Part shown: in pieces, positions 3,802 through 63,150 of the stretch | Layout of the letters: each line of letters opens with the position of its first letter | How positions within the stretch are numbered: the first letter of the stretch is position 1 | From: Eledone cirrhosa | Lineage: Eukaryota | NCBI GenBank assembly: GCA_964016885.1 | Contig: OZ024745.1 | Coordinates: 125,178,001-125,242,000 of the forward strand | Direction: 5' to 3' | DNA: 64,000 nucleotides | The notes under the pieces: generated by a model | Databases searched by the model: none | What the model was told of the DNA's origin: nothing | The model's input: only the letters and a program-made list of their open reading frames with translations | Program-made: the position numbers and the translations under genes

Positions 3802-3997
3802 ATAACGAAGGAAATGTGGTAAGGAACCAGGTGGACCATAACGCACCAAAGTACTCAATACTTAGGGTAGTAGAGTGGGTAATAGGAACAAGTAATACCC
3901 CGACGGCTGAGCTCAACCCGTTTCGACGGCTAATTCTGTACTGAATTAGCCGTCGAAACGGCTTGAGCTCAGCCGTCGGGGTCTTACTTGTTCCTAT
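3802..3997. mobile_element. Fold-back Penelope-like terminal repeat fragment (55-bp arm hairpin with the 3' half of an HHR)
   Basis: Arms 3882-3936 and 3943-3997 are near-perfect reverse complements, each containing GTC-GAAA-CGGN-TT-GAGCTC. Flanked by (TA)n. Homologous to 41572-41765 and 6921-7000. Confidence 0.6.
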
Positions 3998-4261
3998 ATA
4001 TATATATATATATATATATATATATATGTGTGTGTGTGTGTGTGTGTGTGTAGGATAACAATAAATTGTTAAAGGTAACCCCATAAGAGTCTGTGAAAAC
4101 AATTTATCATGGACAGTTTAAGCATACGGTATACTCAACAAGATGTTTACGTTGGTGACGATTTTATGAGTTCGCTTGTATTCCTATGTAAATATATCTT
4201 GGAGTAATAAAAAAGTTAAGAATAACATGGTTGATAGTACAAACAAAGGAATTTTTTACAG

Positions 4262-4363
4262 TCTTACAATTGTTTCCATGATAGAAATGTCTATAAATTG
4301 CTAGATACTTGATAAGTACAACTCAATTTACAATACATTTAAGTTCGACCATTTCATCAGAGA
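4262..4363 (-). ncRNA. Type I hammerhead ribozyme candidate with long stem II insert
   Basis: Minus: TCT CTGATGA a-ATGGTCGAA...TTCTATCAT-g GAAA CAATTG TA AGA. Palindromic stem III; stem I only 3 bp. Confidence 0.45.
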
Positions 4364-5072
4364 ACATTAAGAAAAAAAAATATATGCGTAACGGTAAATT
4401 TAAAGATTCAAAGATTCAAATTACTATATCAATAATATTATTAATGTTAAATAAATAAATAAATATATAAAGGAAGGGAGATAGATGGAAATGAGAGAGA
4501 AAGAAAGAAAGAAGGAAGGAAGATATAGTTAAATGTATAACCGGCAAAATTACGAAATCAACCTATCATATTAAAATAAATATAACATTAATAATAATAA
4601 AGATATATATAGAGAGAAAGAGAGAAGGGGGGAATATAGCACAGGCAAAGAGGAAGGATAAGTGAAGAAGATGAGAAAGAAATAGAGGAAGATTAAGAAG
4701 GATGAGGGAGTAAAAATTAATCATGAGGAAGAGAGAGAAAAAATAAACATACTGATATGAAGAAGATACATATACGGACAAGAAAATAAATATACGGACG
4801 AATATAGATTACTATGTAAAATAGCTAATTTGAGATGTATTATATTATCATAAGATAAAATGAACGAGATGAAATCTGTTTAAGCGGAAAAATATAAAGA
4901 TAAATGGTGAAAGATGTATATATATAAGATAATAAATAATGCAAATACAAATAAAAATAAAAATAAAAATAATTATGTTAATACAAATGTGTTTAGGTTA
5001 TTCCTACGTAATTATGAAGTTTGTGATCATTTTATATCGTAATAAGTGCTAAAAAGGAATATATATATATAT

Positions 5073-58581: not shown

Positions 58582-58589
58582 TTCAAAAT

Positions 58590-61457
58590 GCGATTAGGTC
58601 TTCAAAATGTTTATTATAAACATACAGAATATTTTCGAATATTCTATGTCTATATTCACATATATATCGCTATTTCAGAGCATTTATTCCAATTTCTAAT
58701 TTCTGCCGGACCGGCAACCGCTCTTTCAAACCAGTTCCTGTACACAGCTAAGTATTCTATAAGTCTCTAGCTGTGTCATTCTCGATAAAAGCACTGGATA
58801 TGTAGTCCTGATGAATTCTAACAAGAATGAAACGCGTAGACTTACTTCCCTTGCTTTTATCGAGAATCTAATTGTAATACGTGACGTATTCTATTCTATA
58901 GCGATTAGGTCTTCAAAATGTTTATTATAAACATACAGAATATTTTCGAATATTCTATGTCTATATTCACATATATATCGCTATTTCAGAGCATTTATTC
59001 CAATTTCTAATTTCTGCCGGACCGGCAACCGCTCTTTCAAACCAGTTCCTGTACACAGCTAAGTATTCTATAAGTCTCTAGCTGTGTCATTCTCGATAAA
59101 AGCACTGGATATGTAGTCCTGATGAATTCTAACAAGAATGAAACGCGTAGACTTACTTCCCTTGCTTTTATCGAGAATCTAATTGTAATACGTGACGTAT
59201 TCTATTCTATAGCGATTAGGTCTTCAAAATGTTTATTATAAACATACAGAATATTTTCGAATATTCTATGTCTATATTCACATATATATCGCTATTTCAG
59301 AGCATTTATTCCAATTTCTAATTTCTGCCGGACCGGCAACCGCTCTTTCAAACCAGTTCCTGTACACAGCTAAGTATTCTATAAGTCTCTAGCTGTGTCA
59401 TTCTCGATAAAAGCACTGGATATGTAGTCCTGATGAATTCTAACAAGAATGAAACGCGTAGACTTACTTCCCTTGCTTTTATCGAGAATCTAATTGTAAT
59501 ACGTGACGTATTCTATTCTATAGCGATTAGGTCTTCAAAATGTTTATTATAAACATACAGAATATTTTCGAATATTCTATGTCTATATTCACATATATAT
59601 CGCTATTTCAGAGCATTTATTCCAATTTCTAATTTCTGCCGGACCGGCAACCGCTCTTTCAAACCAGTTCCTGTACACAGCTAAGTATTCTATAAGTCTC
59701 TAGCTGTGTCATTCTCGATAAAAGCACTGGATATGTAGTCCTGATGAATTCTAACAAGAATGAAACGCGTAGACTTACTTCCCTTGCTTTTATCGAGAAT
59801 CTAATTGTAATACGTGACGTATTCTATTCTATAGCGATTAGGTCTTCAAAATGTTTATTATAAACATACAGAATATTTTCGAATATTCTATGTCTATATT
59901 CACATATATATCGCTATTTCAGAGCATTTATTCCAATTTCTAATTTCTGCCGGACCGGCAACCGCTCTTTCAAACCAGTTCCTGTACACAGCTAAGTATT
60001 CTATAAGTCTCTAGCTGTGTCATTCTCGATAAAAGCACTGGATATGTAGTCCTGATGAATTCTAACAAGAATGAAACGCGTAGACTTACTTCCCTTGCTT
60101 TTATCGAGAATCTAATTGTAATACGTGACGTATTCTATTCTATAGCGATTAGGTCTTCAAAATGTTTATTATAAACATACAGAATATTTTCGAATATTCT
60201 ATGTCTATATTCACATATATATCGCTATTTCAGAGCATTTATTCCAATTTCTAATTTCTGCCGGACCGGCAACCGCTCTTTCAAACCAGTTCCTGTACAC
60301 AGCTAAGTATTCTATAAGTCTCTAGCTGTGTCATTCTCGATAAAAGCACTGGATATGTAGTCCTGATGAATTCTAACAAGAATGAAACGCGTAGACTTAC
60401 TTCCCTTGCTTTTATCGAGAATCTAATTGTAATACGTGACGTATTCTATTCTATAGCGATTAGGTCTTCAAAATGTTTATTATAAACATACAGAATATTT
60501 TCGAATATTCTATGTCTATATTCACATATATATCGCTATTTCAGAGCATTTATTCCAATTTCTAATTTCTGCCGGACCGGCAACCGCTCTTTCAAACCAG
60601 TTCCTGTACACAGCTAAGTATTCTATAAGTCTCTAGCTGTGTCATTCTCGATAAAAGCACTGGATATGTAGTCCTGATGAATTCTAACAAGAATGAAACG
60701 CGTAGACTTACTTCCCTTGCTTTTATCGAGAATCTAATTGTAATACGTGACGTATTCTATTCTATAGCGATTAGGTCTTCAAAATGTTTATTATAAACAT
60801 ACAGAATATTTTCGAATATTCTATGTCTATATTCACATATATATCGCTATTTCAGAGCATTTATTCCAATTTCTAATTTCTGCCGGACCGGCAACCGCTC
60901 TTTCAAACCAGTTCCTGTACACAGCTAAGTATTCTATAAGTCTCTAGCTGTGTCATTCTCGATAAAAGCACTGGATATGTAGTCCTGATGAATTCTAACA
61001 AGAATGAAACGCGTAGACTTACTTCCCTTGCTTTTATCGAGAATCTAATTGTAATACGTGACGTATTCTATTCTATAGCGATTAGGTCTTCAAAATGTTT
61101 ATTATAAACATACAGAATATTTTCGAATATTCTATGTCTATATTCACATATATATCGCTATTTCAGAGCATTTATTCCAATTTCTAATTTCTGCCGGACC
61201 GGCAACCGCTCTTTCAAACCAGTTCCTGTACACAGCTAAGTATTCTATAAGTCTCTAGCTGTGTCATTCTCGATAAAAGCACTGGATATGTAGTCCTGAT
61301 GAATTCTAACAAGAATGAAACGCGTAGACTTACTTCCCTTGCTTTTATCGAGAATCTAATTGTAATACGTGACGTATTCTATTCTATAGCGATTAGGTCT
61401 TCAAAATGTTTATTATAAACATACAGAATATTTTCGAATATTCTATGTCTATATTCA
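58590..61457 (+). repeat. Retrozyme array, right arm: about 9.2 tandem 311-bp monomers, 9 HHRs on the plus strand (58804+311n)
   Basis: GCGATTAGGTC at 58590, 58901 ... 61389; reverse complement of the left-arm monomer. Confidence 0.95.
58804..58842 (+). ncRNA. Minimal type I hammerhead ribozyme of the 311-bp monomer (representative of 16 copies)
   Basis: AGTC CTGATGA ATTCT-AACA-AGAAT GAAA CGCG TA GACT; predicted cleavage after A58838. Enclosed by a 16-bp stem ATTCTCGATAAAAGCA/TGCTTTTATCGAGAAT. Confidence 0.9.
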
Positions 61458-61480
61458 TATATATATATATATATATTTAT

Positions 61481-63150
61481 TTATTAAAATAATAGATTAA
61501 ATTTTAAGCAAAGATACGCTGCTTTCACCTTTAACGGGATCTTCTGAAACTAAAAAAAGTCAATCTGAAAGCAGAAGTAAATATTTCGAAAAACGTTGCA
61601 ACCGAAGGAAGACAGGAAGACGATACTTGGTTCGTGGAAACGTTCCCTGGCAAAGAACGTAAAAAAACGAAGATAATACCTCATTATTTGGAACGTTGAA
61701 AACAATTACACGCAAAGACAAAACCACGTTTATGGTATAACTGAAGTCTTAGCCTAAAATTCTATTTAGGAAACCGAATGATTCTCGGCTTCAGAGTTTA
61801 GAATAATGTAAATAAATTACAGAGGTAATTGAAATCAACAAAAATTAAATATATACCTACACGTATCCATATACGTACATACATATTCATACGCGAAAAC
61901 ACCCGCCATGGGTATGCAAATATAAGCACGTACACAAAAGAACGCACACACATACAGAACCCACGCAACGCCTGAACCCGCACACATACGAATGTATACA
62001 CCAAATAGACATAAAAATATATATTAAAAATATGTGTGTGTGTATACATATAATTATATAAACGTATATAAATATACACACATAAATACGTATAAAACGC
62101 GCCCACACACATACCTACATGTAAATACACATATGTTCGCTAAACTACATCAACCAAAACACAAAGTACACATATACACACACCCTACATACGTATGAGC
62201 CCGCATACTCACATAGACGCAAACCTCACGTATACACATAATCATATGCACATGTACCAGTATATATAATAATATATACGCCTATAACATATACAAGCAA
62301 ATATACGTACGAGAAAGTATACGTACTTTCACAAAACATACAGGTAATATATACTTACCTATACAAATAAGTAATGGTATAAACATAAAATATACTTAGC
62401 TACCACATCAAGACGTAATATATCCGCGTATAGTTCGTACTATCCGTTAGGGTATAATGTGGGGCTGTAATACAGGAAAGTTTTGTGCAATTTATGTTTA
62501 CAAGCCGAAATCGCCTCAGATATTTTGTTTAAGATGTGGTCTTTGGCGTAGAGTATTTTACAGGGCCTCAGCGGCGCAGAGGTCACATGGTCTTTTATTT
62601 CCGTTATACGATCTAGCCTTAGCTACGATCTCCCAGTGTAACTTATATTGGGTGCGGTTGTCTTTTAGACTCCAGATATAAGCTGAAAGTGACGTCATAT
62701 TCCTTCTTAAAGTGTTAAGAAAAGAATAGGTATGCATGTAAAGACTCTGCTTGAATCTATTGGCGGTTAACCCTATGTAGGCCCTACGTGACATGGGTGT
62801 TTCAACCTTACATTTGTAGACAATGTTACTAGAGAGGCATTTCCCGGATGGGGGTCAGTCAACCTGATTCCTACAATTACAGTTAGTACTAGCTACAAGG
62901 TTGCACATGTTCCTACGGCTAGGTAATTTAGCTAAATTTTAAGCTGTGATGTTATGTGCAAGGTTTAGGAGTCGTAGAGTAAGAAATTTTAATGGTATTT
63001 CTATTAAAAATGTTAGTATATTTATGTGCTGGGGCGAAATGCTTCATAATAAGGGAGAAAGATCTTAGTTAATGGTTTTATATATTTGATATATATTTAT
63101 CCTTATCGAGCCCTCTTTGGATTTTTGTCTTCAAATTTATTATTATTACT
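61481..63150 (-). mobile_element. 5'-truncated Penelope-like element: GIY-YIG endonuclease remnant (about 62480-63055) plus 3' UTR/pseudo-LTR
   Basis: Minus: CNCRNQ...GKCLSSNIVYKCKVETPMSRRAYIGLTANRFKQ...TSLSAYIWSLKD...WEIVAKARSYNGNKRPCDLCAAE...LNKISEAISACKHK. Confidence 0.9.

Follow-up and report, generated by a model that had tools for sequence, protein, structure and literature searches.

Divergent two-armed arrays of hammerhead ribozyme repeats in TA tracts of Eledone cirrhosa, probably copied from circular RNA monomers by Penelope-like elements

The window analysed here is a stretch of 64,000 nucleotides from Eledone cirrhosa (assembly GCA_964016885.1, contig OZ024745.1). It contains non-coding repeats with monomers of 311, 468, 421, 205 and 532 bp, all of them present in more than one unit length and bounded by (TA)n, where a sequence-only reading of this DNA had placed them. 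They lie among remnants of Penelope-like elements (PLEs) and other elements with hammerhead ribozyme (HHR) motifs:

3805..3994, unstranded: short TA-bounded palindrome of an abundant family, with a one-sided 80-nt extension
5073..5410, minus strand: short two-armed TA-bounded element, intact HHR with long stem II at 5169-5125
5515..6143, minus strand: 468-bp family, 1.34 units in a single arm, (TA)n on either flank
8737..9400, unstranded: 205/300-bp family, divergent arms
10760..11477, unstranded: two-armed 3' end of a Hydra-type PLE family, damaged HHR at 10869 (-), intact HHRs in other family members
12894..13176, minus strand: TA-bounded element, intact HHR at 13087
13530..13910, unstranded: old two-armed relative of the 311-bp unit, damaged HHRs at 13596 (-) and 13746 (+)
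17031..17213, plus strand: C-terminal scrap of a Hydra-type GIY-YIG endonuclease
26339..26938, plus strand: 532-bp family, 1.13 units, (TA)n on either flank
33471..34671, unstranded: 421-bp family, two divergent arms of 1.27 and 1.59 units
35520..36621, plus strand: broken Hydra-type PLE remnant (RT-linker-GIY-YIG), CxCx5C linker, about 70% identity to near-intact copies
56420..58581, minus strand: 311-bp retrozyme array, left arm, 6.95 units, 7 HHRs
58590..61457, plus strand: 311-bp array, right arm, 9.2 units, 9 HHRs
61477..63150, minus strand: 5'-truncated Hydra-type PLE of an abundant second family, endonuclease at 62908-62561

A descriptor scan revealed 21 intact type I HHR motifs at six loci of the window, namely 16 motifs in the 311 array and those at 5169, 5772, 8888, 13087 and 33767, a density not matched by 30 block-wise dinucleotide shuffles of the window, which yielded no motif. 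According to this descriptor, the units of the 311, 421, 468 and 205/300 families carry a type I HHR, as expected of metazoan non-LTR retrozymes. The 468 copy harbors it at 5772-5742, the 421 locus has an intact motif at 33767 (-) with a U.U at the base of stem II and a damaged copy at 34419 (+), and the 205/300 locus has an intact motif at 8888 (-) and a damaged one at 9221 (+). Among the additional HHRs listed by the sequence-only reading, those at 5120 and 13049 are intact and that at 10809 is a damaged copy, while those at 4262, 10190 and 14015 were not confirmed; the descriptor also found no type I HHR in the palindrome at 3805..3994. Rfam missed nearly all HHRs; every unit stays below the gathering score, and its sole HHR match in the window (best 150 of 160 matches) was a sub-threshold HH9 hit at 5719-5791. 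Stem III consists of one base pair and a palindrome, and stem-loop II is short in the monomer HHRs (14-15 nt), whereas it is long in the Hydra-type PLE-end HHRs found here (mostly 26-36 nt).

An HHR had been attributed to all five monomers, which applies to four of them. CUGAUGA and GAA(A) words occur near 26805 in the 532-bp unit, with no valid stems I and II; both stems are absent from the window copy and from 14 other loci, and Rfam matched no ribozyme family in a better copy. A type III HHR was rejected as well, because neither stem I nor stem II forms and a G occupies the cleavage position in most copies. The 532-bp unit resembles the others in its insertion pattern but lacks a type I HHR and is not counted among the retrozymes. 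As this family forms multimeric two-armed copies despite its lack of a valid HHR, the PLE footprint described below does not require an HHR.

The monomers had further been regarded as mutually unrelated. This does not hold for the 421 and 468 units, which are homologous end to end (z=52, 295 of 416 aligned positions identical) with compensatory changes in stems I and II of their HHRs, so that we count four lineages rather than five. The 311 unit is homologous to 13530-13910 (z=27), and the 205-bp unit is a short variant of a unit of about 300 bp. The GC content of the retrozyme units is 0.34-0.48, and their circular folds are predicted to be strongly self-paired (circular MFE z = -3.3 to -8.7, 25 shuffles each). 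The units appear non-autonomous, since no PLE protein match was found inside or linked upstream of them. Exact core counts of the retrozyme families in the genome are 1,144, 1,479, 11,177 and 152, with 29,330 for the 421/468 group, and 311 arrays, whose copies were collected by pattern search, are scattered over at least 999 loci.

The very large genomic ribozyme load that had been suspected was borne out by a sample of 40 evenly spaced 10-kb stretches (400 kb), which contained 29 HHR motifs compared to one in 10 shuffled sets. This extrapolates to about 2x10^5 intact HHR motifs in the genome, more than the count of 126,247 given for axolotl, whose genome is far larger, although the descriptors differ between the two counts. 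All 29 sampled HHRs have (TA)6 within 300 bp, as opposed to 33% of random positions, in line with the proposed enrichment of (TA)n at the flanks. Many of the sampled motifs are PLE ends and not free monomers, with 15 of 25 resembling Hydra-type PLE ends as judged by eye.

Hydra- and Neptune-type PLEs reside in the same genome. From the five PLE remnants named by the sequence-only reading, those at 35567, 62480 and 17070 were recovered and can be assigned to the Hydra clade by sequence features (linker, DKT motif, endonuclease and 3' HHR), the one at 17070 through its relatives only. The CxCX5C linker is present at 35567 and interrupted by a stop at 62480; DKT, linker and 3' HHR are all present in near-intact relatives (L080-L099), and near-intact Hydra-type ORFs reach up to 699 codons. 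Pfam gave no match to the Hydra-type protein. For the sites at 10281, 13940, 4053, 11509 and 6430, neither tblastn with 37 PLE proteins nor four iterated profiles yielded support for a coding remnant. The sequence at 10281 appears Neptune-like by eye only. The PLE at 61477..63150 has a short end on the left, a tail piece on the right and (TA)n on either flank. No (TA)n tract adjoins the right side of the remnants at 35567 and 17070, which corrects the claim that all insertions lie in (TA)n; the five monomers agree with it. Four of 15 matches of the 10760..11477 family are located about 1.1 kb downstream of endonuclease coding, and the element at 12894..13176 is likely a PLE 3' end as well, since two of 13 family matches lie downstream of weak Neptune-type coding. 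The Hydra-type PLEs of this genome have an inverted 5' copy, a tail and a TA target, i.e. the same end pattern as the monomers.

The left arm of the 311 array in the window ends, on its outer side, at unit position 311 with a 35-nt tail, the right arm at unit position 276, directly 5' of an internal AU-repeat; both ends lie inside (TA)n, and an 8-nt insert marks the inversion point between the arms. We analysed this architecture in 69 stretches, all from contig C1 except the window's own, of which 11 were cut off and excluded, leaving 58 complete arrays. The arms are arranged minus-then-plus in 54 of these, (TA)n is present at both flanks in 56, and one tail end is combined with one short end in 51 of the 54 two-armed arrays; one end is fixed by selection here, because 60 of the 69 stretches were chosen for a tail end in (TA)n. 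All eight complete arrays selected by the HHR core alone fit the two-armed pattern. In the four remaining families, the matches listed contain 47 opposite-strand clusters, of which 46 are minus-then-plus (counted by hand), and each family has two recurring ends with a spacing of about 74, 50, 52 and 122 nt. Divergent arms are thus common to all five families, as are two fixed outer ends at a distance of 35-122 nt, and the array joints show microhomology. The hallmarks of PLE-type insertion, i.e. an inverted 5'-truncated copy, a tail at one end only and a (TA)n bias, are therefore present, which agrees with the earlier proposal that PLE machinery reinserts non-autonomous HHR repeats into (TA)n, and we consider it very probable that this machinery wrote the arrays. 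That the TA tracts predate the insertions is only inferred, since we saw no empty insertion site.

The 311 family, the youngest, retains additional information. Differences per unit pair amount to 0.32 within arrays, 0.22 across arms and 4.34 between arrays (56 arrays, 478 units). The majority haplotype is the same in both arms of 28 of 30 arrays, compared to a chance of 0.05 that two arrays match, and 55 arrays comprise 29 haplotypes. Near-identical arrays have an internal divergence of about 0.1%; assembly collapse is an unlikely cause of this homogeneity, because single-unit variants persist. Array-wide A>G changes affect eight sites, seven of them predicted to be paired, and three recur on 3-4 backgrounds, which were set by hand and where recombination could mimic recurrence; array-wide T>C changes affect three sites, none predicted to be paired. 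With the window's unit as reference for polarity, A>G and T>C events stand at 15:3 (p=0.001) and sporadic changes at 5:7, and the excess is weak if sites alone are counted (8:3, p=0.07). The array-wide bias is taken as a trace of an RNA step. None of 104 arm inner ends coincides with the HHR cut site. Eleven arm ends that seemed to cluster beside it had been misplaced in the mapping by a common deletion, and the cluster disappeared when each array was mapped on its own unit. The 311 unit together with its head-to-tail joint was present in four of four read runs of unrecorded kind, in which RNA and DNA are not distinguishable, and this observation is given no weight.

The explanation that we favor, with a probability of about 0.62, is that the HHR repeats are non-LTR retrozymes whose divergent arrays in (TA)n were likely produced by a PLE endonuclease-RT copying round one circular RNA monomer; once PLE machinery is granted, a circular monomer is the likely template. 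The ribozyme circles that had been postulated thus gain indirect support in the 311 family from the single haplotype per array and the lack of arm ends at the cut site. Arrays would be transcribed, paired HHRs with palindromic stem III would cut the multimers to monomers, a host ligase would close these to circles, and their stems would undergo A-to-I editing. The PLE enzyme would nick both strands of (TA)n and prime from either side of the break. Its two internal start sites would be separated by 35 nt in the 311 unit, each RT would go round the template between 0.1 and more than 19 times, and the two cDNA ends would join through microhomology. We give even odds to the wider view that long-lived protein-free ribozyme circles parasitise PLEs and that one edited circle is copied by two RTs from both sides of a TA break, so that multimers arise which are joined head to head and reach tens of units; the arrays would then record rolling-circle double-ended target-primed reverse transcription and A-to-I editing returned to the germ line.

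What counts against cleavage is that a stem III of 1 bp plus palindrome weakens its expectation, and only one of nine predicted frog retrozymes was cleaved in vitro. The PLE machinery could instead copy long uncut multimeric transcripts of existing arrays, with circles as by-products and the HHR not needed. The weak stem III, the short HHR-free arrays of the 532 family and the read-through of the cut site are all compatible with this, as is the homogeneity that donor arrays already have, and uncut RNA was the dominant substrate of a purified PLE, without need for an HHR, which favors multimeric transcripts (PMC11167929, available text). We nevertheless regard this as unlikely, since a new variant must be fixed in all units of both arms, 29 haplotypes in 55 arrays need repeated one-monomer bottlenecks, and editing of a multimer should be mosaic, while A>G is partly spread in a single array (L049). 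A linear HHR-cut monomer on which the RT jumps repeatedly from the 5' to the 3' end would give an equal one-monomer bottleneck, and family-level variation is indeed concentrated at positions 147-148 beside the cut site; the 0/104 arm ends at that site and the lack of an excess of sporadic errors there (3/83, p=0.22) make this route very improbable.

Tandem repeats expand by slippage and unequal crossover, and this familiar process could also have enlarged the arrays locally after a PLE had inserted 1-2 units per arm. Such growth, a route suggested in the available text of Li, Clavereau, Pollet 2026 (10.64898/2026.07.22.740005), accounts for one haplotype across both arms and for the few variants present in 2-3 units of an arm. 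It is rather improbable given that most sporadic variants are confined to a single unit, that the arrays are scattered, and that near-identical 311 arrays are long, whereas the arms of 421 and 300 copies about 10-20% off the window's unit are mostly 1-1.5 units long. Least probable is that the monomers represent nothing more than pseudo-LTR ends left by 5' truncation of autonomous PLEs. This holds for other HHR loci, such as the Hydra-type-like motifs of the genome sample, but without an intervening TA tract 0/808, 0/79, 0/49, 0/23 and 0/33 monomer matches lie downstream of PLE coding, compared to 12/73, 4/15 and 2/13 for PLE-end families, and multimers reach about 31 units; for the 311, 421 and 468 families this possibility is largely refuted. 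The repeated birth of monomers from pseudo-LTRs, which the sequence-only reading had inferred, likewise appears unsupported at the sequence level, as the monomers are diverged lineages of their own and none of the five matched the 3' regions of 49 + 20 + 59 sampled PLE loci (best-scoring copies, few families); protein searches found no parent PLE.

The partnership of retrozymes and PLEs is already in print (PMC4209133, PMC7229834, 10.64898/2026.07.22.740005), and proposals that retrozymes spread through circular RNA with enzymes taken from PLEs go back to 2014-2020, argued in the text available to us from co-occurrence and homology. With four lineages bearing the PLE insertion footprint and a one-molecule record per array in the youngest, which names the priming sites, this route is now testable: the arrays supply templates, and the near-intact Hydra-type ORFs a candidate enzyme, for an in vitro test. 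The record also bears on the origin of PLE inverted repeats and tails. Titles and abstract openings of the papers listed by the literature searches mention no two-armed retrozyme arrays and no cephalopod retrozymes, though subscription journals, Repbase and the supplements of the 2026 preprint may hold such, and a term search of the accessible part of an octopus repeat annotation (PMC13282606) gave 0 occurrences of hammerhead, ribozyme or retrozyme.

As far as the accessible text goes, the purified green anole Poseidon PLE (Frangieh et al. 2024, PMC11167929) cuts AT-rich DNA on both strands and extends them, and two internal RT start sites delimit its tail, so that dual-strand cleavage and paired start sites match the array footprint; its template was linear and uncut with a dispensable HHR, and no circular or non-autonomous template is described there. 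Hydra and Neptune PLEs (Craig et al. 2021, 10.1101/2021.04.23.441226, in part) share the inverted 5'-truncated copy, the one-end tail, (TA)n insertion and HHRs with the elements described here, and the DKT motif and CxCX5C linker with the Hydra-type copies; the monomers differ from them in being non-coding and in forming arms of up to tens of repeats. The available part of Li et al. 2026 describes vertebrate retrozymes as non-autonomous PLE derivatives with many families per genome, similar to the thesis of the sequence-only reading, and reports pLTR homology for 21 Repbase PLEs in Xenopus, whereas we found none among the PLE loci sampled; the array anatomy here points to multimers made at insertion instead of local amplification. 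The metazoan non-LTR retrozymes of Cervera and de la Pena 2020 (PMC7229834) are likewise tandem non-coding units of a few hundred bp with a GC content below 50%, a type I HHR, a short palindromic stem III and self-paired predicted circles, and PLEs are proposed there as mobilising partner with circles as templates of tandem cDNA. Expression, circles and cleavage were shown in that study, whereas our elements are known from DNA; conversely, the divergent arms, fixed tail ends, TA bias, haplotypes of single arrays and putative editing marks of our elements are not described in its available text. The U.U at the base of stem II in the 421 HHR also occurs in the axolotl HHR_Amex2, as given in the accessible part of the same paper.

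Using a type I descriptor (exact cores, a stem I of at least 4 bp, a stem II allowing a bulge or a basal U.U, and a closed stem III), we identified 21 intact hammerhead ribozyme (HHR) motifs spread over six loci of the window, which has 33% GC and 106 (TA)6 tracts (assembly size 3.0 Gb). None occurred in 30 block-wise dinucleotide shuffles. The HHR-like motifs that the sequence-only reading also placed at 4262, 10190 and 14015 are not intact under this descriptor, and the same is true of the few related motifs present in 1.47 Mb of genome sequence.

Table. HHR motifs and short repeats in the window.
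311-bp array: 16 intact HHR motifs (type I descriptor)
5169, 5772, 8888, 13087, 33767: single intact HHR motifs (type I descriptor)
9221, 10869, 13596, 13746, 34419: damaged HHR copies
3805-3994, 9859-10033, 30812-31029, 41575-41762: short palindromes bounded by TA, of which some extend further on one side
14791, 20225, 37531, 37708, 39367, 39850, 41085, 45078, 45296, 45561, 50428: SINE-like repeat of 150-200 bp, about 11 copies

In 40 evenly spaced 10-kb stretches of the genome (400 kb in total), 29 intact motifs forming 23 clusters were found in 16 stretches, compared with one in ten shuffled sets. This scales to 217,000 motifs (bootstrap 120,000-322,000), in line with the very large genomic load that had been proposed, and since six loci per 64 kb are comparable to 23 per 400 kb, the window is ordinary for the Eledone cirrhosa genome. 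The suspected enrichment at (TA)n was likewise confirmed, with all 29 motifs located within 300 bp of a (TA)6 tract versus 33% of random positions. Among the 25 sampled motifs listed, 15 resemble ends of Hydra-type Penelope-like elements (PLEs) and five belong to monomer families, as sorted by eye. Exact core matches genome-wide numbered 1,144 (311), 1,479 (468), 11,177 (421), 152 (205/300) and 856 (532), and a degenerate 421/468 core matched 29,330 times; reversed-sequence controls for all six patterns gave no match. One 468-type array (contig C1, 5738327-5752443) has about 31 units in one arm, spanning about 14 kb.

The monomers had been described as five unrelated HHR carriers. They form four lineages, because the 421 and 468 units are homologous along their full length (z=52, with 295 of 416 positions identical), with compensatory changes in their HHR stems; the "205" unit is a shortened form of a unit of about 300 bp, and 13530-13910 is related to the 311 unit (z=27). 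The 532-bp unit contains the core words and lacks stems I and II, here and in 14 further loci, and has no ribozyme match in Rfam, which leaves an HHR in the other monomers only. Despite having no valid hammerhead, this family (window 26339-26938) forms two-armed multimers that carry a 122-nt tail, and it may use another ribozyme or none. We conclude that the genome-wide retrozyme-PLE system is real, while the window-wide claim narrows to four lineages, one without an HHR, and to many HHRs that are PLE ends.

We then compared monomers and PLEs. Among the probe matches of the five monomer families, 0 of 808, 79, 49, 23 and 33 lay downstream of PLE coding sequence without an intervening TA tract (many matches per array; flanks of 1.5-6 kb), as against 12 of 73, 4 of 15 and 2 of 13 for PLE-end families. 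From this we conclude that the monomers are free elements and not merely truncated ends of full PLEs. Nor did they match the 3' regions of PLEs at 49 Hydra-type, 20 Neptune-type and 59 further Hydra-type loci, a thin sample of 28,651, 17,033, 4,869 and 53,084 first-look candidates in four protein searches, with monomer matches at the 49 and 20 loci read as separate neighbouring insertions. The existence of diverged sister families points to long independent lineages, and the proposed repeated birth from pseudo-LTRs is one possible origin of the monomers. The 421 and 468 units share a conserved octamer-like word with a Hydra-type 3' UTR (stretches L080 and L085), which could belong to an internal promoter.

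The anatomy of the insertions makes the rolling-circle step testable, and this is their main value. The 311 tail end abuts (TA)n at no fewer than 999 places in the genome. We sampled 69 stretches, i.e. the window array, eight listed core-match arrays and 60 of the 100 listed places with the tail end in (TA)n, all but the window array being on contig C1; 11 were cut off and excluded. In 54 of the remaining 58 arrays, a minus arm precedes a plus arm and the 3' ends face outward, and 56 are flanked by (TA)n on both sides. In 51 of the 54, unit position 311 marks one end, while the other falls at 268-286, adjoining an internal AU-repeat. All eight complete arrays chosen without regard to their end fit this pattern. 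Arm length varies between 0.1 and over 19 units, and inversion points are scattered, with microhomology of 1-16 nt at 33 of 52, blunt joins at 8 and inserts at 11. In the other four families, 46 of 47 opposite-strand clusters among the matches listed are minus-then-plus (hand count), and each family has a recurring pair of ends, the spacing being about 74, 50, 52 and 122 nt.

Across 56 arrays of the 311 family, which contain 478 full units, pairs of units show 0.32 differences within an array, 0.22 when taken from the two arms and 4.34 when taken from separate arrays. Of 30 arrays, 28 have a majority haplotype common to both arms; L049 departs from this at one site and L240 by two adjacent insertions, and 29 haplotypes occur among 55 arrays. 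The low within-array divergence and the shared haplotype indicate that each array derives from one monomer sequence. In L049 (C1, 61292800-61299200), one A>G is present in the inner two of five minus-arm units and in all five plus-arm units, as if the template had been changing during copying. Array-wide A>G changes on the ribozyme strand affect eight sites, seven of them predicted to be paired and three recurrent on 3-4 backgrounds, while T>C affects three sites, none predicted to be paired. With polarity set by the window's 311 unit and backgrounds assigned by hand, the A>G:T>C ratio is 15:3 by events (p=0.001) and 8:3 by sites (p=0.07), an excess over the 5:7 of sporadic changes (Fisher p=0.024) that suggests an RNA template subject to A-to-I editing.

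The predicted cut site follows unit position 145, with the array 3' ends about 130 and 166 nt downstream. Since none of 104 arm ends in 311 arrays lies at this site and errors are not enriched there, the enzyme read through it. An uncut multimeric RNA would account for such read-through as a template, but it leaves the repeated one-monomer bottleneck unexplained; all of these observations are most simply accounted for by a closed circular template. Circular RNA was already proposed in 2014 as a template for more-than-unit PLE copies (PMC4209133), non-LTR retrozymes together with their circles, and PLEs as the partners they likely have, are treated in a 2020 paper (PMC7229834), and an origin from PLEs for such retrozymes in a 2026 preprint (10.64898/2026.07.22.740005). 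We found no description of two-armed retrozyme arrays in the literature searched.

Near-intact Hydra-type PLEs in the genome (DKT, CxCX5C, ORFs of up to 699 codons) resemble the retrozyme arrays: they are flanked by TA and carry a tail as well as an inverted 5' copy. The tail and the inverted copy are described for PLEs, and (TA)n insertion for Hydra, by Craig et al. (10.1101/2021.04.23.441226), and Frangieh et al. (PMC11167929) report that purified PLE protein cleaves both strands in vitro and extends them, with a tail bounded by two internal start sites. Of the PLE remnants proposed in the window, those at 35520-36621, 62908-62561 and 17031-17213 were recovered, and those at 10281 and 13940 were not. 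The region 61477-63150 belongs to a Hydra-type family of very high abundance; in the copies examined, the family's 3' hammerhead-like motif deviates from the core.

The short TA-bounded palindromes are probably extreme truncations of two-armed insertions, and the 3805 family is present at 43 sampled genome loci. A nested mirror-image element in a sampled stretch (L152, 1870-3680) has a central palindrome from a third repeat family; its arms are from the 5169 HHR family, and both contain (CA)n/(TA)n tracts as well as part of another repeat. The SINE-like copies lie outside (TA)n, and a tRNA-like stretch at 18565-18637 heads a different repeat. By eye, the GC-richer regions 22700-24060 and 27760-28500 resemble remnants of other non-LTR retrotransposons.
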